A stretch of DNA of 59,854 nt from a virus (taxonomy: Duplodnaviria > Caudoviricetes), in IMG/VR virus record IMGVR_UViG_3300005512_000033, positions 1 to 59,854 of that record; one strand, 5' to 3'. The position numbers were made by a program, and so were the translations under genes. Positions 6,953 through 31,576 of the stretch are shown piece by piece. How positions within the stretch are numbered: position 1 is the first letter of the stretch; each line of letters starts with the position of its first letter. Below the pieces are notes generated by a model. It was given only the letters and a program-made list of their open reading frames with translations. It was not told the DNA's origin and did not search any database.

Positions 6953-7508
6953 CGTCTTCTATCACTTCGCCTTCAACTACCTTACCTTTTAGCTCTTCAA
7001 TCGTCTTTTTCAGCTCTTCTTCAAGCTCTTTACCTGATTTAGTGACATGTGTAACCTCTGTTTTCTTCTTAAATGCGTCTACTCCGTCTATTTCACCTAT
7101 TCTAGACCATGCTGAGATACGTTCACGGGCTGATTTAGCCGTTGCTGCCTCTTGTAATAGTCCATTTAGCACTGATAACTTAATATCTGCTAGGTCTTTT
7201 ACTACCATATGGCTGGTTGACGCTACTAACCCTGTCAAAAATGCTATAGTTTCGTTAGGATAGTTGTCAAACTCGTGTTTTAGGTCTCTATCAGTCATCA
7301 TTTCCTTAGCCATTTTAGTAGCTTCATCAACTTGATCCTTAGTTGGCTCAATAGTTTCTCCATTGAGGTCCGCAATCAACTTAATTGTTTTACTTCTAGC
7401 TAATAATTCTTCTTGTGGAGTTAATTCAGGCAAAGCATCTCTAGCTCCTTTAGGTAAAGGAATATTTTCTTCGACTGGAGGTACTATTGGTTCTCTATTT
7501 TCTGTCAT
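6939..7508 (-). CDS. Putative terminase small subunit
   Basis: Helical ~189 aa ORF overlapping the terL start. Start reassigned to MTENREP (7508) because promoter-like sequence occupies the upstream extension. Confidence 0.6.
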   Translation of the reverse strand: MTENREPIVPPVEENIPLPKGARDALPELTPQEELLARSKTIKLIADLNGETIEPTKDQVDEATKMAKEMMTDRDLKHEFDNYPNETIAFLTGLVASTSHMVVKDLADIKLSVLNGLLQEAATAKSARERISAWSRIGEIDGVDAFKKKTEVTHVTKSGKELEEELKKTIEELKGKVVEGEVIEDDDDQ

Positions 7509-7549
7509 GTGTCGCTGTTTACACCTTGAAATTGCAGCTAATAAATTGA

Positions 7550-7581
7550 ATTGTAACATAATATATAAAAAAGGGTATAAT
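7550..7581. promoter_or_regulatory. Back-to-back sigma70-like -10 elements
   Basis: Minus strand TGtTACAAT (7550-7558) points toward terS. Plus strand TATAAT (7576-7581) lies 6 nt before ATG 7588. Confidence 0.5.
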
Positions 7582-7587
7582 GTTAAA

Positions 7588-7788
7588 ATGTTTGAGTGGG
7601 TTCTATATCTGTATTTAGATAATGATCGACAGTACATAGGTAACTTCGAATCCTGTGCCCATGCTCATCAATATTTTCAAGAATGCGTACAAGGTGAACT
7701 TAAACAATGGTCAACCGCTTGCATTCATCAAGACTATTTATATTTACCAGAAGGCTTCACCCCAGTACAACCAACAACATGTCTATAG
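7588..7788 (+). CDS. Hypothetical Cys-containing protein, possibly leaderless
   Basis: C-terminal 66 aa of ORF 7363-7788 starting MFEWVLYL. No SD visible. Confidence 0.55.
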   Translation: MFEWVLYLYLDNDRQYIGNFESCAHAHQYFQECVQGELKQWSTACIHQDYLYLPEGFTPVQPTTCL

Positions 7789-7846
7789 AATGGAAAGATA
7801 CAGAATTTGGTCCAGTCAACCTATGGTCTTTAGGTAGGGCTCGTTC

Positions 7847-7996
7847 GTGAGTTGGTATTTAATAGTTGCAGTTGGGTTAATTTATTTTGCTGTTAGTGTT
7901 GAACAGTTTCTAAAAGGTAATGCTGCGTTAGGTTATATGTATTTTGGTTATGCTTTTGCAAACATTGGTGCTTATATGCTGGTGATGGAAAAATGA
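7847..7996 (+). CDS. Small two-TM membrane protein
   Basis: Manual translation (GTG start) MSWYLIVAVGLIYFAVSVEQFLKGNAALGYMYFGYAFANIGAYMLVMEK. ATGA overlap with the next gene. Confidence 0.7.
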   Translation: MSWYLIVAVGLIYFAVSVEQFLKGNAALGYMYFGYAFANIGAYMLVMEK

Positions 7997-8337
7997 CTCT
8001 ACTCACAGACGAAAACTTGAAACTCTTATATAAGACCTTCTGTCGTATGGAACCATTTAATAAACTTAATATGCCTCATGCACACCAAATCAAACTTAAG
8101 GTTACTCGACGCAAAGATATTATGGGAGAGTTTGCCCCTGAAGAAAATACTATCTATATTAGTAGTGCTCGCAATGCTCACTTCGACACAATCTGCAAGA
8201 CACTTCTACATGAGATGGCTCACTTATCCGTGTACAAACAACGAGATGAAGAATACCACAGCCATGACAACAAACGTTTTAAAAGCATCATCAGACATAT
8301 TGCCTCCTTGTATGGGTTTGACCCCAAAGAGTTGTAG
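7993..8337 (+). CDS. SprT-like zinc metallopeptidase
   Basis: TLLHEMAH zincin motif plus downstream His (YHSH...F). Confidence 0.75.
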   Translation: MTLLTDENLKLLYKTFCRMEPFNKLNMPHAHQIKLKVTRRKDIMGEFAPEENTIYISSARNAHFDTICKTLLHEMAHLSVYKQRDEEYHSHDNKRFKSIIRHIASLYGFDPKEL

Positions 8338-8538
8338 TTAACCAAAGTACTTTTTAATAATATCTAAATGGTCCTGGTACCTGGCTATTTCGTCTAGCTC
8401 TTTCTCCACAGCTTCAACGATGTCACTATGTTCTCCTATTCCTACAGGACTTGTCAAGTATATTTCAACATTAATTCTATGTTTTTCAATATGACCAAGG
8501 GCGTGCTTTTCTAACGCTGTTAATAACTTTTCTCGCAT
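8338..8538 (-). CDS. Conserved small phage protein (PVGIGEHSDI family)
   Basis: 66 aa, NVEIYL..PVGIGEHSDI motif familiar from aquatic phages, AGGAG RBS. Confidence 0.75.
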   Translation of the reverse strand: MREKLLTALEKHALGHIEKHRINVEIYLTSPVGIGEHSDIVEAVEKELDEIARYQDHLDIIKKYFG

Positions 8539-8607
8539 AATGTTCTCCTAGTAAAAGGCTAGGTTACCACACATCATTTAACAAAGCAGAAACGAGAATC
8601 ACTCTCA

Positions 8608-8637
8608 AATAAAAAGCCCGGCGAGAGAAACCGGGCT
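8608..8637 (-). terminator. Intrinsic terminator
   Basis: AGCCCGG-tttctctcg-CCGGGCT followed by TTTTATTT on the minus strand. Confidence 0.8.
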
Positions 8638-8706
8638 GTGTTACTAACTTTATAGGAATCAGTAAGGATCGAGAGGAGAGAGTAAGTAAGGAACCCTCAC
8701 TGACCT
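8608..8706 (-). ncRNA. Candidate trans-acting antisense sRNA
   Basis: Promoter at 8713-8740. 12-bp stem (8692-8703 with 8659-8670) with G-U pairs and a 21-nt C/U loop. Linker is complementary to early-gene leaders. Ends in an intrinsic terminator. No plausible ORF. Confidence 0.65.
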
Positions 8707-8712
8707 AATTTC

Positions 8713-8740
8713 ATTATATGCCAAATATTTTATTTTGCAA
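8713..8740 (-). promoter_or_regulatory. Sigma70-like promoter for the sRNA
   Basis: TTGCAA-N16-TATAAT on the minus strand. Confidence 0.7.
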
Positions 8741-8750
8741 CATCTTTTTG

Positions 8751-8896
8751 GGTCCCCTTGACGGGGGGTGTTTGTAAAGTAAGGGGGGTGGGGGGTCTAG
8801 TATTTCAATTTTTGTCTGGTAATTTGTGTAAATCTTAGTGCGTAGCGTAGCGTGGGTCCCATCTGTTGTAATGTGGTTGGTGGGGTATGGGTGGGT
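8751..8896 (+). other. G-tract-rich non-coding segment
   Basis: GGGGGG, GGGGGGTGGGGG and GGGGTATGGGTGGG runs in an otherwise AT-rich genome, at the strand-divergence point. Confidence 0.6.
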
Positions 8897-8899
8897 TAT

Positions 8900-8928
8900 T
8901 TGACATAGGTATTCGGTTTTAGTAAAAA
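8900..8928 (+). promoter_or_regulatory. Early promoter P1
   Basis: TTGACA-N17-TAAAAA. Shares flanks ttatTTGACAtag and gattcatg with P2. Confidence 0.6.
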
Positions 8929-8982
8929 GGATTCATGCATTACATATTGTGATGTGTTTATTAACTTTATAAGGAGTTTATT

Positions 8983-9204
8983 ATGAATGACAAAGTATTA
9001 AACATAGTAAGTAACATTGTTGGTTACGAAATACTAGGCAGTCCGTTTGTAGTCAACGCATTAATGAACGAAGCTAATAGGGCTATCAAACATTACGCAG
9101 AGAATGGGGATACTCCTGGCGCTGTCGTTGATCCTAAGTCTTACGCTCTTGTAGCTGAGAACGTTAAGCAACAACTCAATAAATATTTAGAGGAGAATAA
9201 ATAA
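8983..9204 (+). CDS. Hypothetical early protein
   Basis: 73 aa, TTAACTTTATAAGGAG leader. Confidence 0.7.
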   Translation: MNDKVLNIVSNIVGYEILGSPFVVNALMNEANRAIKHYAENGDTPGAVVDPKSYALVAENVKQQLNKYLEENK

Positions 9205-9350
9205 TGAAAGATATATTCGCATTGATTGCTTGTGTATGTGGTTTAGTGGCAACGTTACTGGGGTTCGCAATGAACCCCCTTGCCTACGTCTTTGTAGGTG
9301 TTGCAATAGTTCACCTAGGTATATGGTTCTACCTAACCTGGTGTGAATAG
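9204..9350 (+). CDS. Small two-TM membrane protein
   Basis: Manual translation MKDIFALIACVCGLVATLLGFAMNPLAYVFVGVAIVHLGIWFYLTWCE. TAATG coupling and GAGGAG RBS. Confidence 0.65.
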   Translation: MKDIFALIACVCGLVATLLGFAMNPLAYVFVGVAIVHLGIWFYLTWCE

Positions 9351-9355
9351 TTCTT

Positions 9356-9373
9356 GGGAGCTTCGGCTCCCTT
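9356..9373 (+). terminator. UUCG-capped hairpin (terminator-like, weak U tail)
   Basis: GGGAGC-TTCG-GCTCCC-TT right after the stop codon. Confidence 0.55.
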
Positions 9374-9467
9374 GATACCAGTTATGTGTCGTCGCCTCCG
9401 TCGAGGTCGATTTTGTCGGTTTGGCTGAGTTCAATGCGTGGGAATTCCCACGCTAAGCCCTACTTAT

Positions 9468-9496
9468 TTGACATAGCATATAACTAATTATATAAA
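9468..9496 (+). promoter_or_regulatory. Early promoter P2
   Basis: TTGACA-N17-TATAAA, followed by a 5' hairpin (atgttcgg...ctgaacat) and the TAACTTTATAGGAG leader. Confidence 0.75.
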
Positions 9497-9554
9497 TGAT
9501 TCATGTTCGGTAATTCTGCTGAACATATTTTACTAACTTTATAGGAGTGACATT

Positions 9555-10262
9555 ATGTCAAACTTAAATACAAAAACTTTAATTAATGAATCAATCGGCT
9601 TAGTTTGCAAAGGCTCTAGCATGGTCAAGCAAGGTGCTTCAATGTATCTTGATCTGGTCTTGAGATATGCAGACAAAAAGCTAATAGACAAAGTTTCAAA
9701 GTCTAAGCTAACTAAAGATGCTAACGCTGTTATTGATGACGGCTTTGCTAATATGGCAAATGAAGTCAAAGATCAAACAACGACTGCATTCTTTGAAAAT
9801 TGGGAACGAGAAAAGGGCGAGAAAATTCCAGTCAAGGTTGTAGCTGGAAAGCAATTAGTTCCTAGCGAGGATAAACCTGACATGGTATTAGAATCACGCT
9901 TAGCGTGGGCTATGCCTAAGGGCGAGTATCAATCCTTGTCTGCGACTAAGGGCGAGAACGCTGATCCAATCGGTCCTGCTAAGAAAGAGTTTTACAAGGC
10001 ATGGCGTGAATCAGCTCAAGATTACAAGCGTGACAAGTTTCGTGATCTTAAAAACGCAGTCAAAACTTTGTATGCGAAAGATAATACAGAGTCAGGCTCA
10101 AGCGTTGAAGTCTTGCCTTTCAATTCTCGCATGGTCAAAGGCTTTGCAAGTTTTGTCAAACTATACCGCAACGGTATTAAAAACGGTGACAAGCTTAATG
10201 CTCAAAAGGCAGAAAAGGTTGAATCACTAATCAATGAACTTGACAAAGTTCTTAACTCATAA
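9555..10262 (+). CDS. Hypothetical early protein
   Basis: 235 aa with its own promoter, strong RBS and terminator. No recognisable motif. Confidence 0.8.
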   Translation: MSNLNTKTLINESIGLVCKGSSMVKQGASMYLDLVLRYADKKLIDKVSKSKLTKDANAVIDDGFANMANEVKDQTTTAFFENWEREKGEKIPVKVVAGKQLVPSEDKPDMVLESRLAWAMPKGEYQSLSATKGENADPIGPAKKEFYKAWRESAQDYKRDKFRDLKNAVKTLYAKDNTESGSSVEVLPFNSRMVKGFASFVKLYRNGIKNGDKLNAQKAEKVESLINELDKVLNS

Positions 10263-10270
10263 CTCCCACA

Positions 10271-10304
10271 CCCTGTTCGGCTTCGGTCGGACAGGGTTTT
10301 TTTT
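10271..10304 (+). terminator. Intrinsic terminator
   Basis: CCCTGTTCGGC-TTCG-GTCGGACAGGG followed by T8. Confidence 0.9.
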
Positions 10305-10526
10305 CGCCCTAAATTCTTGAAACCAGTTAGATACGACGAGGTCGCTATCGTAGCCTACGACGCTAGATTATATTGCTACTGATACCAGTTATGTGTCGTC
10401 GACGTCGCTGACGCCGTTTGTAAAGTTTGCGTGGGAAATCCCACGCTACGAGGTCAGAACCATGCTATCGCTAGAGATATAATTTAGCGATGCTTTTTTA
10501 AGTCTAGTTTGCCTAGTAAACTGGGT

Positions 10527-10909
10527 TGTTCCATGCAAAACGAGGTTTTGTTCCAGTCTTTGAGGTGGGGCTTGGAACAGGTTTTTGTCAACGAGAACAA
10601 GAACTTAGTCTACTTTGTTCCAATGTTCCAGTCTTGGTACACAGGGTATGAGGTTTTGAGAAGTTTAGTCATCAAGAGGTTCGATTTTGCAGTGCAAAAC
10701 TAAACAACACAAAAAAACATCGTCCTGTTTTCACTGGAACAACTGGAACAAACTAAAAATTATTAAAATAATATAATATATAACTATATAAAGCCTAGTA
10801 AAATCAAGCACTTAGCTCAGTTCCAAATCTGTTCCAATGTTCCAATAGTAAAGTTATAGCATGGTTTTAGACTGGAACAACTGGAACAATCTTATAAATC
10901 AAGCACTTA
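10527..10909. repeat. Iteron-like array (TGTTCCA/TGGAACA x11, AAATCAAGCACTTA x2, AT-rich core); candidate replication origin
   Basis: Heptamer copies at 10527, 10549, 10573, 10616, 10624, 10735, 10744, 10830, 10838, 10873, 10882. 14-mers at 10801 and 10896. AT tract ~10752-10790. Confidence 0.7.
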
Positions 10910-11000
10910 CAACACCACTATTTTTCAGCCATTCGTAAACTAGGAGTGGAGACCACAATTCAACTCACGATATAACAACAAAAATACTTCGACTCACATA

Positions 11001-11045
11001 TTGGTAAATTAGTAAAGTTTGGTATAATATTAGTATGGTTAGAGA
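11001..11045 (+). promoter_or_regulatory. Promoter P3 (extended -10)
   Basis: aattagtaaagttTGgTATAATattagtatggttagaga; near-duplicate of P4. Confidence 0.7.
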
Positions 11046-11133
11046 TAATTACATATATTCCGTTTCGCTCTATCCAGACCGTGGGATTTCCCACGATAAT
11101 TTTTACAAGTTATTAACTTTATAGGAGAACGAG

Positions 11134-11337
11134 ATGCACAAAAAAGACTTAGAACAAATGGAGAAATACTGGGAAAAGTATCACAAATCAATACCTGATT
11201 ATCCATTAATGGATCGCAGAGAACAAATTAAACAACGCAAACTTGACAGAATATTGTCGGTTGTGTTGGTTATCTTAGTCGTTCTGTTAATCGTATCAGT
11301 AGGTATGTTGACATATCTAATGCGAGGTGGACTATGA
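11134..11337 (+). CDS. Small protein with C-terminal TM helix
   Basis: 67 aa, TAACTTTATAGGAG leader. Confidence 0.7.
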   Translation: MHKKDLEQMEKYWEKYHKSIPDYPLMDRREQIKQRKLDRILSVVLVILVVLLIVSVGMLTYLMRGGL

Positions 11338-11600
11338 GTAATAGTTTAGAAACTTCAAACACGCACTACAAAAAGCTAGAGATAATGTCAAACTATTCTA
11401 GGGACATGATGATAGAGAAAATATTAGATGACATAGTAGACAAGTTATCTAATACATACAGTGGGGACGACTTGATCGCTGAGATAGTCGAACTTAATCT
11501 TAACGGTGCTCATGCAATTAACGAGATGGACGACAAACAACTAGCAGAGAAGTGCGTAGAAATATTTGATGACAACGACGAGTGGGGAGACGAGATATGA
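11334..11600 (+). CDS. Hypothetical acidic protein
   Basis: 88 aa, ATGA coupling. Confidence 0.7.
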   Translation: MSNSLETSNTHYKKLEIMSNYSRDMMIEKILDDIVDKLSNTYSGDDLIAEIVELNLNGAHAINEMDDKQLAEKCVEIFDDNDEWGDEI

Positions 11601-11857
11601 GTATGCCAAGTATCGAAGACGAAGTATGGACGTATTGGTGTAACGAGGTTGAAGTTAATTGCCCGACACTAACAGACAAGTATCGCATGGCTGGTAAAGT
11701 TTTAGAAGAGAGGTGTGTGCCTGAGAAATATGTTAATGATGAGCAAATGTATTGTATTCAAGAACTAATCGACCACTATATCAACACCAAAGATACATCA
11801 GACTTAGTTCACATAATAGCCGACGCATTACGCAATCAGGAGGTAGACTATGATTAA
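11597..11857 (+). CDS. Hypothetical protein
   Basis: Start MSMPS via ATGA overlap. Confidence 0.65.
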   Translation: MSMPSIEDEVWTYWCNEVEVNCPTLTDKYRMAGKVLEERCVPEKYVNDEQMYCIQELIDHYINTKDTSDLVHIIADALRNQEVDYD

Positions 11858-12050
11858 CTGTATAACGTGTGGTAATGAATTCTCTAGCGATAGAGCAAAA
11901 CTAGGTTTCAAGGTTTGTCTTGACTGTGGGGAGAAGCAAGCCGAGAAAGTTAAGCACTGTGTAGCACCGATGCACAAATCAAACTACATGGTGTTCACAA
12001 ACTACGATGACTTAAAAGGCATCAACAACAAGGGGGGTTTAATCAAATGA
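11850..12050 (+). CDS. C4 zinc-finger protein
   Basis: CxxC...R..LG...CLDCGE...PMHKSNY, GGAGG RBS. Confidence 0.75.
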   Translation: MINCITCGNEFSSDRAKLGFKVCLDCGEKQAEKVKHCVAPMHKSNYMVFTNYDDLKGINNKGGLIK

Positions 12051-12199
12051 GTATCACAAACAAAGATGATTGGAAAATCATTATGCACAATCGCAAGAAC
12101 GTAAATAAAAAGGACAGGGTGTGGGAGTATCCTGAGGAAGAACAGACAGAAGACTTGTCTGACATTGAACTTGACTTTGACAGAGAGGAGGATAGCTAA
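12047..12199 (+). CDS. Small hypothetical protein with acidic tail
   Basis: Manual 50 aa ORF MSITNKDDW..., ATGA overlap. Confidence 0.5.
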   Translation: MSITNKDDWKIIMHNRKNVNKKDRVWEYPEEEQTEDLSDIELDFDREEDS

Positions 12200-12229
12200 A
12201 CACTGAACAAAAATAGTCGAACTAGGCTA

Positions 12230-12275
12230 TTGTAGAATTAGTAAAGTTTGCTATAATATAAGTATGGTGAGAGAG
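12230..12275 (+). promoter_or_regulatory. Promoter P4 (extended -10)
   Basis: aattagtaaagttTGcTATAATataagtatggtgagaga. Confidence 0.7.
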
Positions 12276-12387
12276 ATTCATAAACCATGCAAAACAAGTA
12301 AACATGCAGTTGAGATACAAAAACATGCAGTAGCAACAGAGAGCGTGGGATTTCCCACGATACATATTAACTTTATAGGAGAACGAC

Positions 12388-13299
12388 ATGCACTACGTCG
12401 AACTACAACAACCTAAACATATTACATCACTAGCCACATCAGCAGTATTGGTATCGGTGGACGTAAATGTTTGGTCAGCAACAAAACAAGACAGGGGTAT
12501 CTCATCAGAGGTAACCAAACTTAAACGAGCAGACAGTAACGCAGGTAGGTTTGTTAAGAATCTATTAGCTAACAACATCTACCACAAAGACTTGGTGAAC
12601 TATCGACAGACCATTTACAACTGGTTAAAGCGTAGCACATACCGATGGAACGTCAGTCAAGACTTATTACCTACAATCAACTTAGAGAAATTCAAATCTG
12701 AGTATGACGAACATCAGACAGAGTTTTACAGACTACTAGATGATTTTTGCGATAGGTATGACACTATTAAATCAAACATGGCTTTTAGTCAGGGTGATAT
12801 GTATAACGCAGATGATTACCCAAGCGTAGATGAGGTCAAGAGTAAGTTTGCATGTAACCTGTATGTTTCTGAAGTGCCTGAACAAGACTTCCGTTGTCAA
12901 GTAGCACAAGACTTGGCGAATGACTTGAAACTACAATATCAAAAACAAGCAGAGGAGATAGTTAAGAATGTATTACATCAACAAACAGAACGAATCACGA
13001 ATGTCATGGAAAGTATCGCACACTGTTGTGGAACGCAAGAGATTACTAAAGACGGCAAAACTACAACAAAGAAACGAAAAATCTATGATAGCACCATCGA
13101 GAAAGCAAAAGAGTTATGCGAAACAATCAGGAACTTCCAACTAACTGATAGTGAACATAGCACAAGACTTAGATCAGTAGCGAATCAATTAGACGATACC
13201 CTACAAGGTGTTGACAGTGAAAAGCTACGAGTAAGTGATAGCACAAGAGAGCGTGTTAAGAACGACGTGGAAGACATACTTTCTAAATTTCAATTCTAA
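12388..13299 (+). CDS. DUF3150-like helical protein
   Basis: SAVLVSVDVNVWSATKQD start and F...Y...G.MY...DYP motif. Family inferred mainly from its position before the AAA+ and vWA genes. Confidence 0.55.
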   Translation: MHYVELQQPKHITSLATSAVLVSVDVNVWSATKQDRGISSEVTKLKRADSNAGRFVKNLLANNIYHKDLVNYRQTIYNWLKRSTYRWNVSQDLLPTINLEKFKSEYDEHQTEFYRLLDDFCDRYDTIKSNMAFSQGDMYNADDYPSVDEVKSKFACNLYVSEVPEQDFRCQVAQDLANDLKLQYQKQAEEIVKNVLHQQTERITNVMESIAHCCGTQEITKDGKTTTKKRKIYDSTIEKAKELCETIRNFQLTDSEHSTRLRSVANQLDDTLQGVDSEKLRVSDSTRERVKNDVEDILSKFQF

Positions 13300-13332
13300 T
13301 CGTGGGAATTCCCACACATAAAGGAGAGCGTA

Positions 13333-14388
13333 ATGCACACAGTAACAATTAAAGAACTACGAACACTTATCCCAACTATTGGTAGAGAGATCACACCGAT
13401 CATACAATCCGAGCCAGGTTGTGGTAAGACATCATTACTTCATATGCTAGAGGAAGACTTGGGCGACAAATACGACTACATCTACGTCGACTGCCCAGTG
13501 AAAGATATGTCAGACATAGCTATGACTATTCCTAACCATGATACTAAAACATTGGAAAGCTACGTGGGTTCTATATTCAAACTAGAAAGTGATAAACCAA
13601 AAGTTATATTACTCGACGAGTTTATGAAATCCCCTAAGCTACTACAAGTTATCTTCACAAGGCTAATGCTAGAGAGATGCGTAGGTGATACACCACTACC
13701 TGAGGGTTCTATTGTGTTCGGCACATCGAATAACCAATCCGACGGAGTAGGCGACACTATGCTAGCCCACGCAGGTAACAGGGTTTGTATCTTGCAAATG
13801 GAGAAACCACAAGTAGATGACTGGCTAATATGGGCAACTGATAATGACATACACCCACTTATCAGAGCATGGGTTCATATGTTTCCTAGATCGCTAGCAA
13901 GTTACTTAGATGATAACCAAGAGGACAATCCCTACATCTTCAATCCGAAGAAACATCAACTGAGTTTTGTCTCGCCACGCTCATTGGCTAAGTCTTCCGT
14001 CATTGTTTCTAACAGAGACACACTAGGAGATAAGGCTACAATGTCAGCATTGTCAGGCACGATCGGCACGAGTGCATCGTCGGATATGTCAGCGTTTCTA
14101 TCGCTAGAGAAAAAATTACCTAAGTTCCAAGACATCTTAGATAACCCTGACAAGATAGCTATACCATCTGAAATATCAGCACAACTTATGGTTATGTTCC
14201 AAGCTGTGGACATACTCAAGACACAGGACGAGTTATCTGACTTCATGAAGTTTGTAAACAGACTACCAAGCAGTGAGATGCAAGCCGTGTTCTTTACCAT
14301 GATGGTTAAATCTAAGAAAGCACGAGACATAGCACGAGGTAACAAACAGATTGCTAAGTGGTGCGAAGAAAACTTTGACTTATTCTAG
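13333..14388 (+). CDS. MoxR-like AAA+ ATPase
   Basis: Walker A SEPGCGKT, Walker B LLDE, sensor I TSN, NR finger, SPRS sensor II. Confidence 0.9.
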   Translation: MHTVTIKELRTLIPTIGREITPIIQSEPGCGKTSLLHMLEEDLGDKYDYIYVDCPVKDMSDIAMTIPNHDTKTLESYVGSIFKLESDKPKVILLDEFMKSPKLLQVIFTRLMLERCVGDTPLPEGSIVFGTSNNQSDGVGDTMLAHAGNRVCILQMEKPQVDDWLIWATDNDIHPLIRAWVHMFPRSLASYLDDNQEDNPYIFNPKKHQLSFVSPRSLAKSSVIVSNRDTLGDKATMSALSGTIGTSASSDMSAFLSLEKKLPKFQDILDNPDKIAIPSEISAQLMVMFQAVDILKTQDELSDFMKFVNRLPSSEMQAVFFTMMVKSKKARDIARGNKQIAKWCEENFDLF

Positions 14389-28630: not shown

Positions 28631-31576
28631 ATGACACAAGAATTTTACAACAAAGCACTACCTGATTCAGGAAAGAACTACTGTGTAGCTTGGGTTACAG
28701 ACAAAGGCACTATGGCTCATGAGTGGGTCGAGTCTAAAGCTGAAATACCTGACACTGTAAAATCTATTCAAGAAAAACAGGGGGAGGACAAAAACATATT
28801 TTTTGCTATATCTTCGTACATTAGTCCTGTACGTAAAGGTAGAGTAAAAGAGAAGTTAAATGTAGACTACAGACGATGCTTATATCTTGATCTAGACGTT
28901 GATCCTGAGAAAGCAGAAGCTGGTAAGACATACAAAACTAAGCAAGATGCTATAGACGCTTTAACTAACTTTATAGAAAATACAGGCATGCCTGATCCTG
29001 TATGGGTAGACTCAGGTAACGGTATACACGCATACTATTTATTTGATGAAGACATACCTATTACAGAGTGGGAGCCGTATGCTAAAAAGTTCTTAACCTT
29101 TTGTCAAAACAATAATCTGTTAGTAGACGAGAGTGTTATGTGCGACATCTCTAGGATCATGCGTTGTCCTGACACGATAAACAACAAACCAAAACGAGAC
29201 AAAGCTCCAGCTAAGATAATGTCTGATGAGTTAGTAGTCTATAAGTTTGGTATGTTCAAAGAGATACTAGGTGAGGTTGAGCTATCAGTAAATGATATTT
29301 TAAAACAAGCCGCTAAACTGCCTATGTCTGACGAGGAAAAGAAAGCCGCTAAGTTAGACAACTTCAAAGTATCGTTTGACAGGATTGCAAAAGAAAGTAT
29401 AGCAGGGACTGGCTGTGCGCAGATCGATCGCATACTACGAACTAAGCCTAACGATGTTGAATACGATGAGTGGTTCTCTATACTATCTATTGCTCAACAT
29501 TGTGAAGACAGGGCAGAAGCTATACATGAACTATCTAAAGGGCACAATGATTATTCGCCTAGTGAGACAGAGTTTAAAGCTAATGAAACACAAGGCAAAC
29601 CGCATACCTGTGAGCAGTTTAGTAAATACAAAGCAGGACTATGTGATGGGTGTAAGTTTAAAGGTAATATCAAATCACCTATCAATATGTTTAGAGAATT
29701 TATACCTGCGCCTATAGCCGTAGTTAAAAAAGATGAAGGAGGAGAACTAACAACTAACAAAGAGTTTGTAGGACTACCATCGGAAATAGCTAAGAAGGGT
29801 TGGTCTATCGGTGCTAACTCAGGTGGTATATATTATCAGCCTCCAGTAGTACATGATGAAGAAGGTAACCCAATAGCACAAAAACCTGTGCTTGCATTAA
29901 AGCACTTACTCTATCCTATACGTCGTATCTATTGTGAGAAAGATGGAGAGATGTTAGACATGAAAGCGGTGTTACCATCTAAAGCAAACAAACAAGGTAA
30001 TGAACGTGTATTTAGAATGAAGATGAACGAGCTATATGATTTGTCTAAGTTCAAAGAGATAGTTACAAAGAACGGAATTATATATGACCAAAAAACTAAA
30101 CAAGGAAGTTATATTATGGATTACATTTATGAGTGGGCAGATTGGCTTATAGACCATACTGATCCTGATATGCTACGTAAACAACTTGGGTGGGCTGATA
30201 AATGTACATCCTATGTGTTTGGTAAAACAGAAATGAGAAATGTAGAGGGGCAGATAATCGAAGCTGATACTGCATTAGCTGGTAATGCTAAGACACTAGC
30301 TAAATATATGGAGCCTACAGGCAGTTATGATGAATGGAAAAAAGCAGCTCAAAAACTAAATCAAAAAGAATTTGAATTACATGCCTTCGTGTTGATGACT
30401 GGTTTCGCATCTCCGTTGTTTGAGTTTTTAGAATGTTCTACTCCAGCTATTACTATGACTTTATACAATACAGAATCTGGTACAGCTAAGACCGGTGCAT
30501 CATTCGGTAGTATTAGTATATGGGGTCACCCTAAACCACTACATATGGTTGGTACTAAAGATGGTAAGAGAAACGCACAAGCGACACCTAATGCATTGAA
30601 TCAACGTATCATAGCTTTGAAGAATGTACCATTTTTGTTTGATGAGATGGGTAACCAAAACGGTGAAGAGACAGGTAACTTTATTCACAACGTATCACAA
30701 GGTAAACCTAAAGTTAGAATGGAAGCATCTGTAGATGAAGAGCGTCCTCATGAAGGTGAAGCATCTATGGTTGTTATCTTTACATCAAACCACTCGGTCA
30801 TAACTAAATTAGCTGGGTTGAAGATAGACCCTAATGGTGAGCTAGCAAGGGTTCTTGAGTTTAAAGTTGGTTCTCCTAGCTTACTTAAAAATGACGCTTT
30901 GATGGGGGCAGAGATATTTAATCCGTTTACTAAGAACTATGGTCATGCAGGTCGTGAGTATATTAGATACTTAATGGAAACTCCAAAAGAAAAAATAAAA
31001 GCTAGGTTTGACTACTGGGTAGAACGGTTCATGAATGACTATTCAAAAGATGCTGTGTATAGGTTCTATCACAATGCTATAGCTTGTACATTTACAGGAG
31101 CGGAAATAGCTAATGAACTAGGTATTATTGATTATGACTTAGAGCGTATCTACAATCACGTAGTTAATGATATGGTTAATACTAAGAACAATGTCATTGA
31201 GATTAACAAAGCGGATTACGTTGACGTACTACAAAGGTTCCTTAACTCTAATCACTTGGGTACTTTAACTATTGAAGATGGTAACGCTTCTGCAGATGTT
31301 AGAGCATCACACTTAGTTATTAGAGCTGATATAGACAAGAGCTTATACAATATTGAGACTAGGGCGTTTGCTGAGTTCTTAGCTAAAGAAGGTGCAAGCG
31401 TAGATGCATTCATAGAAAATATGAACAAGCTAGGGTATAAGACTCGTAAACACAAGAAGCGTATGGGTGCCCAATGGAAACCTGCTGCTAGTTTAGGTGC
31501 TGTATCTAGTATTGAGATAGAGTCTGCTAAGTTCTTAGATGAGATAGTGAAAGAAATAAATGCTGAGAACAAGTGA
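28631..31576 (+). CDS. Primase-helicase (AEP-type primase, Cys cluster, DUF927-like P-loop domain)
   Basis: LDLD, SGNG.HAY, R.MR.P.T.N.K, C...C..C, SGTAKT Walker A variant, FDE Walker B. Confidence 0.85.
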   Translation: MTQEFYNKALPDSGKNYCVAWVTDKGTMAHEWVESKAEIPDTVKSIQEKQGEDKNIFFAISSYISPVRKGRVKEKLNVDYRRCLYLDLDVDPEKAEAGKTYKTKQDAIDALTNFIENTGMPDPVWVDSGNGIHAYYLFDEDIPITEWEPYAKKFLTFCQNNNLLVDESVMCDISRIMRCPDTINNKPKRDKAPAKIMSDELVVYKFGMFKEILGEVELSVNDILKQAAKLPMSDEEKKAAKLDNFKVSFDRIAKESIAGTGCAQIDRILRTKPNDVEYDEWFSILSIAQHCEDRAEAIHELSKGHNDYSPSETEFKANETQGKPHTCEQFSKYKAGLCDGCKFKGNIKSPINMFREFIPAPIAVVKKDEGGELTTNKEFVGLPSEIAKKGWSIGANSGGIYYQPPVVHDEEGNPIAQKPVLALKHLLYPIRRIYCEKDGEMLDMKAVLPSKANKQGNERVFRMKMNELYDLSKFKEIVTKNGIIYDQKTKQGSYIMDYIYEWADWLIDHTDPDMLRKQLGWADKCTSYVFGKTEMRNVEGQIIEADTALAGNAKTLAKYMEPTGSYDEWKKAAQKLNQKEFELHAFVLMTGFASPLFEFLECSTPAITMTLYNTESGTAKTGASFGSISIWGHPKPLHMVGTKDGKRNAQATPNALNQRIIALKNVPFLFDEMGNQNGEETGNFIHNVSQGKPKVRMEASVDEERPHEGEASMVVIFTSNHSVITKLAGLKIDPNGELARVLEFKVGSPSLLKNDALMGAEIFNPFTKNYGHAGREYIRYLMETPKEKIKARFDYWVERFMNDYSKDAVYRFYHNAIACTFTGAEIANELGIIDYDLERIYNHVVNDMVNTKNNVIEINKADYVDVLQRFLNSNHLGTLTIEDGNASADVRASHLVIRADIDKSLYNIETRAFAEFLAKEGASVDAFIENMNKLGYKTRKHKKRMGAQWKPAASLGAVSSIEIESAKFLDEIVKEINAENK

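Follow-up and report, generated by a model that had tools for sequence, protein, structure and literature searches.

The region between the late and early genes of this phage raises the question of whether a stretch of DNA without an open reading frame encodes a small RNA (sRNA) that pairs in trans with the ribosome-binding sites of the phage's own early genes. The DNA analysed, referred to here as the window, is 59,854 nucleotides long and constitutes a whole IMG/VR virus record (59.8 kb, estimated to be 96% complete) from an uncultured, aquatic, lytic-type phage. The putative sRNA gene is located in a divergent control region. To the left of ~8540 the late/packaging arm is read leftward and encodes a 66-aa phrog_1811 protein, a 232-aa protein, the large terminase and the portal, and this arm resumes at the opposite end of the record with virion genes. 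To the right of ~8980 the early/replication arm is read rightward and encodes small unknown ORFs, an AAA ATPase, a metallopeptidase/VWA protein, DNA polymerase A, an SNF2 helicase and a primase-helicase. The nearest named phages, as judged by a large terminase that is ~50% identical, are the Pelagibacter phages HTVC027P and HTVC023P, phage DSL-LC04 and 023Pt_psg01. A megablast search of 8300-9600 against GenBank phages returned zero matches, and a distant blastn search against phages returned short matches that all fall within the 66-aa gene. A Pfam scan of 84 distinct ORFs detected no integrase, repressor, antirepressor, antiterminator, sigma factor or RNA chaperone family and no lysogeny or immunity module around the sRNA, so that the earlier note's description of a phage with no recognisable integrase holds at the Pfam level.

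The earlier note had described a minus-strand unit that lacks an ORF and that contains a promoter, a stem with three G-U pairs working on that strand only, a linker and a GC-rich terminator, and all of these elements are present. The unit occupies 8740-8607 on the minus strand. Its sigma-70-type promoter (8713..8740, minus strand) is composed of TTGCAA at 8740-8735, a 16-nt spacer and TATAAT at 8718-8713; it agrees with the consensus at 10 of 12 positions, a consensus match rather than a mapped start, and has an A-rich tract upstream. With the start inferred to lie ~7 nt past the -10 element and the end placed within the U-run, the predicted sRNA covers 8607..8706 on the minus strand and is ~96-100 nt long. 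At its 5' end is a stem-loop (8659..8703, minus strand) in which UCAGUGAGGGUU (8703-8692) forms 12 pairs with GAUCCUUACUGA (8670-8659) around a 21-nt C/U-rich loop at 8691-8671. Three of these 12 pairs are G-U or U-G and become A.C mismatches on the plus strand, and the fold is correspondingly asymmetric: the minus strand folds at -31.8 kcal/mol (z -3.63, matched by 0 of 200 shuffles) and the plus strand at -23.7 kcal/mol (z -1.39, matched by 18 of 200). The stem-loop is followed by a single-stranded linker at 8658-8638 on the minus strand, within which lies the seed UCCUAUAAAGUUAGUAA (8641..8657, minus strand; mean unpaired probability 0.74) that is antisense to early leaders. The unit ends with an intrinsic terminator (8607..8637, minus strand) that has a stem at 8637-8615 with 8 pairs, 6 of them G-C, and a loop of 7, followed by UUUUAUUU with the U-run at 8614-8607.

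Coding potential is absent from this region at the level examined, as neither strand of 8539-8982 contains an ORF of at least 30 aa. A 13-codon GTG frame located at the window sRNA has lost its start in the closely related contig L139. The plus-strand copy of the leader sequence at 8641 is also not followed by ATG, GTG or TTG within RBS distance, as had been claimed. An Rfam search of 7500-13500 with E values up to 1 yielded only anti-hemB, whose 19.6 bits fall short of the cut-off of 49.5 (E 0.4), and the sRNA region did not match the C4 family. Given a promoter and terminator that are both conserved among relatives (see below), the unit is very probably a real RNA gene. Four public runs yielded contigs only; in the one that is labelled as metatranscriptomic, contigs span 8797-8986 and 9427-9592 and do not include the sRNA gene, and their extent has no bearing on expression.

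The evidence that the RNA is directed at early genes starts with the 17-mer TTACTAACTTTATAGGA, the complement of the seed, which occurs exactly at 8641-8657 and at 9530-9546, with near-copies at 11110 (one mismatch), 12364 (two) and 8958 (three) and two more matches at 28962 and 48001. These seven matches at no more than three mismatches compare with 0.53 expected, and 0 of 100 shuffles reach seven. The exact distal copy is the leader and SD of gene 9555 (235 aa; 9530..9546, plus strand), where 17 of 17 positions are complementary to the RNA and the duplex can be extended to 19 bp. The other predicted targets, likewise on the plus strand, are the leader and SD of gene 11134 (67 aa; 11110..11126), of gene 8983 (73 aa; 8958..8974, with one bulged A) and of gene 12388 (303 aa; 12364..12380). 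Full-length RNAduplex scans were noisy because they allow long internal loops, and we therefore utilized seed-segment scans together with longest-run and shuffle counts. When the 23-26-nt seed segment alone is ranked over 107 start regions, gene 9555 comes first (-25.3 kcal/mol), 11134 second (-24.1 kcal/mol), 8983 third (-22.1 kcal/mol) and 12388 fourth (-19.8 kcal/mol, tied with 24638). Over 39,884 sequence windows representing the whole genome on both strands, the same four sites rank 1, 2, 3 and 5, with rank 4 taken by a site antisense to a late gene. The genome-wide pairing background is -5.4 +/- 2.3 kcal/mol, as compared to -25.1 to -19.8 kcal/mol for the four leaders.

The longest Watson-Crick runs of the sRNA with the leaders of 9555, 11134, 12388 and 8983 are 17, 13, 13 and 10 nt, respectively. 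This bears out what had been claimed from the sequence at first sight, namely that the linker is the exact 17-nt complement of the 9555 leader plus SD (8657-8641 against 9530-9546), that it gives a 13-nt complement to the leaders of 11134 and 12388 and that it matches the leader of 8983 less well. Where the leaders differ by C or U at position 4, the opposing base in the RNA is a G and the position stays a G-U pair. All four leaders belong to the first gene after a promoter-like site, in agreement with the view that the targets head four early units, and the sRNA gene is 0.3 to 3.7 kb away from them. The similarity of the leaders to the T7 gene 10 epsilon enhancer plus SD gives some of the likeness among the targets a translational explanation.

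We gathered relatives of this locus through the 66-aa neighbour protein, through a conserved 19-nt motif located past the terminator (searched in IMG/VR) and through the same motif in metagenomes. The metagenome scan returned 79 loci; ~22 carry the cassette beside the motif, a few more are phage contigs that have no cassette there, and the remaining loci are unrelated sequences. A scan of IMG/VR with the terminator pattern returned 19 loci, 11 of which were new (L093-L103) and were rejected as unrelated chance matches, the others being already known. The cassette is represented by 11 distinct sequence variants, a D2 variant and F-type copies in L122, L124 and L169, and it is laid out as an A-rich tract, TTGCAN or TTGACA, a spacer of 16-17 nt and TATAAT or TATAGT, after which come a stem-loop, a C/U-rich stretch that is left exposed and a G+C terminator. 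Its members fall into six lineages: A (the window, the identical L112, and L139, which is A2), B (L008/L086 and L165/L178), C (L003/L082 and L180), D (L007/L113 and similar contigs, with L012/L111 as D2), E (L083/L089/L123 and L173) and F (L009/L146, L148 and similar contigs). Both promoter hexamers and the terminator are preserved in all six, while the spacers and the RNA body diverge between lineages beyond alignment.

The shape of the predicted RNA is retained throughout this divergence. Every member is 73-103 nt long and folds into a 5' stem-loop, an open linker and a terminator; the relatives carry an equivalent stem-loop with a UUCCUUUC-type loop, and the seeds across lineages are largely unpaired (0.57-0.93). 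A global alignment gives covariation support for the terminator only, where among 10 family members 3 of the 9 predicted pairs show changes on both sides that preserve the pair. The 5' stem of the B/C/E subfamily is conserved and nearly invariant, with a compensatory change in 1 of 10 pairs. Additionally, the 5' stem arm CAAGGCATAGATGA of the B and C RNAs recurs in full (14 of 14 nt) within a late gene of the same strand (L008 6328; L003 4258), so that the 3' arm of the RNA could pair with that mRNA. The earlier note had allowed that relatives might reveal the 8641 copy as the decayed leader of a lost plus-strand gene; what they contain is the same cassette. In L108 and L005 the cassette is reduced to a decayed promoter. 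As a separate observation from the single contig L108, the 15 listed start regions of its early arm lack a shared standard leader. Contigs assembled from public runs, which represent mixed populations, include one joint that skips 202 nt (8556-8759) and with it the whole RNA cassette, a T8650A change in the seed in one contig and a C9533T change in the leader at 9530 in two runs.

It had also been suggested that seed and leaders be checked for co-variation among related phages. For each lineage we determined the longest Watson-Crick run that the RNA minus its terminator makes with the start regions (-30 to +6) of early-arm ORFs lying on the opposite strand of its own contig, with significance taken from 500 dinucleotide shuffles of each RNA. 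The run is 17 nt in A and in A2, 13 nt in B and 14 nt in B2, with 0 of 500 shuffles reaching these lengths in any of the four cases, and 14 nt in D, where 1 of 500 does. It falls to 10 nt in C (9 of 500), 9 nt in E (147 of 500) and 7 nt in F (481 of 500). When RNAs and start regions are exchanged among A, B and D, runs of 6-9 nt are all that is obtained. The sequences involved are different in each case: UCCUAUAAAGUUAGUAA pairs with TTACTAACTTTATAGGA in lineage A, CUCCU(A)UAGUUAAAAGAAG pairs with TTCTTTTAACTATA..GGAG in three leaders in B and B2, and UUCCUUUCGUAGUA pairs with TACTACGAAAGGAA, 8 nt ahead of the ATG, in D. With the seed segment alone, the three early leaders of B2 are the top three of 3,490 windows and the target site of D is the top of 9,738. 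The A and A2 comparison adds little to this, as their whole intergenic region is almost identical and only the RNA loop differs.

The best target in A, B and D is, as judged by position, the first gene of the second early transcription unit, and it sits in each behind the same module of a terminator GGGAGCTTCGGCTCCC, then TTGATACCAGTTATG, then a promoter. The proteins encoded by this gene in A and B are homologous with 27% identity (E ~5e-14). In sequence terms, seed and targets do change together in lineages A, B and D, so this part of the proposed co-variation stands. Lineage C is suggestive of a match to its own leaders: the duplex is interrupted and in two parts and is the best of 4,650 windows with the whole RNA, with single segments at rank 6 or unranked. 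The proposal fails for lineages E and F, in which no RBS complementarity was found in 9.4 and 3.7 kb of early arm, respectively. Complements of the loop and linker in the 54-kb record of lineage E are confined to the RNA's own antisense and to sites with three mismatches. The leader of the orthologous gene in E is approximately the window leader minus a 9-nt CTAACTTTA box, and the E RNA is without the corresponding anti-box. One other candidate in lineage E, a 17-bp duplex with two mismatches over codons 4-10 of a 317-aa early gene (-16.2 kcal/mol), ranks second of 8,040 windows and lies away from any RBS; it was not counted.

Several further repeats are present in the early regions of these phages. 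The palindrome CGTGGGAWTTCCCACG has five copies between 9435 and 13319 of the window, and lineage E has another palindrome, CCTGACACnnTGTCAGG, at comparable places (L083 7000-9200); these palindromes look like an operator or hairpin whose specificity differs among lineages. Two promoters of the window, at ~11009-11028 and ~12238-12257, have the form TTAGTAAAGTTTGSTATAAT, in which a box replaces the -35 element and is combined with an extended -10 element. TTAGTAAA boxes recur in the early region of L083. Promoters of the TTAGTAAAGTTTGSTATAAT form may be middle promoters with an activator box.

The explanation that best survives as an alternative to an anti-RBS sRNA is that the RNA is the terminated leader of the late operon, of the lambda PR'-tR' or 6S RNA type, made from a constitutive promoter and read through late in infection by means of a phage antiterminator, with the antisense match being secondary or an added function as in StxS. 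The unit is read in the late direction and immediately precedes the late arm with its 66-aa phrog_1811 gene, large terminase and portal, it couples a strong promoter to a strong terminator, and the PR'-tR' by-product StxS is described in the available text of PMC7547250 as acting as a trans sRNA. This explanation has to contend with the sequence past the terminator. There, outside of the sRNA, the late motif GAGTGATTCTCGTTTCTGC (8604-8586, minus strand) is unique in the window and is followed 19 nt downstream by a -10-like element TGnTAACCT (8569-8561, minus strand), which in relatives reads TATAAT or TACAAT. Whatever gene comes first in the late arm, the motif lies ahead of it, irrespective of whether the contig has the cassette. 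Motif and -10-like element persist where the cassette is decayed or absent (L108, L005, L144), and they also persist in L122, L124 and L169, where an inserted gene separates the RNA terminator from the late motif. The late motif probably represents a late promoter that depends on an activator. Late transcription thus most likely starts from a promoter of its own, which makes an antitermination design like that of lambda PR' less likely. With a late motif past the terminator, and with a cassette that can be separated from it by a gene or be absent, the RNA appears not to be just a late leader; as judged from these arrangements, the RNA gene is a self-contained, dispensable module. No antiterminator family was found by Pfam in the 84 ORFs, a scan that distant or novel antiterminators could escape, and the lineage-specific match to early leaders is left unexplained by a late leader. 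Taken together, we regard this alternative as unlikely.

Other features of the late side can be noted. A G-rich element, TGACGGGGGGTGT ... GGGGGGTGGGGGG at ~8750-8800, is conserved throughout the lineages, also in contigs that lack the RNA cassette, and in lineage D a gene lies between it and the RNA. In L083, L085 and L108, tandem GTTTAACGTTTAACGTT repeats separate the late motif from the terminator or from what remains of it. Both the late motif and the cassette are absent from the 13-kb terminase neighbourhoods of DSL-LC04 and 023Pt_psg01.

A second alternative is that the 8641 copy is a relic without function, which arose when an early leader was duplicated in inverted orientation and came to lie between a promoter and a terminator whose actual role is to insulate the divergent early and late arms from one another. 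An origin by leader duplication is indeed suggested by lineage B, where similarity to the leader runs for ~25 nt with small gaps, and E and F have the cassette without any match. A relic would be expected to drift, yet the RNAs of A, B and D match their own current leaders by 13-17 nt, and between A and B the match has been kept although the adjacent orthologous protein is down to 27% identity. Furthermore, in A, B and D the match consistently involves an exposed segment of the RNA, and its orientation is in every case antisense relative to the transcription of the RNA. These properties render a relic quite improbable.

We judge it to be just as improbable that the RNA acts mainly on the host, with its C/U-rich loop and linker mimicking the 3' end of 16S rRNA, binding purine-rich host RBSs or titrating an RNA-binding protein, and with the phage leaders constituting one target class. 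Such a role would account for the UUCCUUUC-type motif being the best-conserved part of the RNA body across lineages B-F, and for its presence in E and F, which carry the motif but no phage target; known phage sRNAs also often target host genes (PMC12197685, in the text available). However, the lineage-specific extensions past the anti-SD core match phage leaders and not a general SD. Finally, the idea that a phage regulatory protein recognizes the repeated 17-mer as DNA, at each early leader and once more beside the late promoter and without any RNA pairing, draws on an early region dense in other repeated DNA sites (for example the five-copy palindrome) and is highly improbable, as the 17-mer is not palindromic, includes the SD, which is an RNA-level signal, is always in the unpaired part of a structured transcript, and varies by C or U opposite a G to give G-U pairs that are meaningful for RNA only.

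The reading that we favor, and consider fairly probable from the sequence evidence, is that of a trans-acting anti-RBS sRNA that represses early genes. For such an sRNA we infer transcription, repression, timing and biological role along the following lines. Host RNA polymerase would start at the near-consensus sigma-70 promoter and stop at the intrinsic terminator to give an RNA of ~96 nt, which the promoter suggests is made from the onset of infection. The open linker would nucleate in trans on the leader of the first cistron in each of four early transcription units. The resulting duplex would mask the AGGA of the SD and the upstream epsilon-like box, which is TTAACTTTA, the T7 gene 10 epsilon motif, in three of the four leaders, and would thereby block binding of the 30S subunit. 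In A, B and C the anti-SD lies partly at the foot of the 5' stem, and pairing would be expected to begin in the open part and extend into the stem. Degradation of the paired mRNA may follow as well. Early proteins would be limited, or shut off, as the RNA accumulates or once the early promoters are off. Possible roles include setting a ceiling on early proteins, clearing early mRNA after early-promoter shut-off and excluding superinfection by phages of the same lineage. A simple late shut-off fits oddly with this scheme, as a promoter of the sigma-70 type points to expression as soon as infection begins, and the early-to-late switch or immunity role proposed earlier is speculation.

A broader reading, which we advance tentatively, is that the RNA and leaders constitute an address system in a virulent-type phage, in which standard early leaders (enhancer plus SD) are read by a single RNA that shuts early translation, with seed and leaders co-evolving as a private code in each lineage to give heteroimmunity without lysogeny. 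A resident phage would then, through its RNA, silence incoming phages that belong to its own lineage and not those of another lineage. Should the prediction of a trans-acting anti-RBS sRNA hold, the temporal shut-off of early genes, which is run by proteins in T4, could be exerted by a single RNA. A compact natural set of orthogonal sRNA-leader pairs suited to E. coli reporters would also be provided by lineages A, B and D, and seed-leader matching alone would be sufficient to reveal regulators of this type in contigs of uncultured phages. In the main texts of the literature searched, we found no trans-acting phage sRNA directed against a set of the phage's own early leaders. Described phage sRNAs are, according to the available text of one review (PMC12197685), for the most part either cis-antisense RNAs found in temperate phages or RNAs that regulate host genes; the searched main text of this review does not contain the terms "early gene", "virulent phage" or "lytic phage".

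By analogy, the closest known system in mechanism is the c4 RNA of phages P1 and P7. This trans-acting RNA of ~77 nt, encoded in immI, blocks translation by pairing around an RBS, and its specificity comes from matching RNA and target sequences that are the basis of P1/P7 heteroimmunity (available text of PMC12197685 and PMC8546580). As c4 is portrayed there, both it and the RNA predicted here are phage-encoded RNAs that act in trans through short exposed segments pairing at an RBS. Unlike the present RNA, c4 belongs to the immunity operon of a temperate plasmid-prophage and has one mRNA target. The sRNA here has its own promoter and terminator, is matched to four early units and is encoded by a genome in which no lysogeny gene was detected. 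c4, in contrast, is processed from the very transcript that it regulates.

In position, the closest analogs are StxS and lambda 6S. StxS is a short PR'-tR' RNA that starts at a constitutive promoter, ends at a terminator immediately before the late genes and acts in trans by base-pairing (PMC7547250). It differs from the sRNA here in being a by-product of Q antitermination that acts on rpoS and stx1, whereas the phage described here has a separate late promoter-like motif past the terminator and yielded no antiterminator, and its sRNA is predicted to target early leaders of the same phage. Other antisense RNAs that repress phage genes, such as P22 sar, lambda OOP and aQ and those of PAK_P4 (PMC12197685, available text), are described as encoded in cis opposite a single target, in contrast to an RNA that is 0.3 to 3.7 kb from four predicted targets. 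The likeness to T7 concerns the targets and not the RNA: three of the four target leaders have TTAACTTTA upstream of the SD, as does the T7 gene 10 epsilon leader, for which the enhancer motif is given as UUAACUUUAA in the available text of PMC9590205, and the RNA would thus cover a probable enhancer together with the SD.

In logic, the closest analogs are RegA and RegB of T4, as in both cases one factor would address many early leaders and bring about post-transcriptional shut-off at RBSs in a virulent phage. RegA is a translational repressor protein and RegB is an endoribonuclease that cuts GGAG. The factors that perform this function in T4 are thus proteins, whereas the factor in the phage described here would be an RNA.
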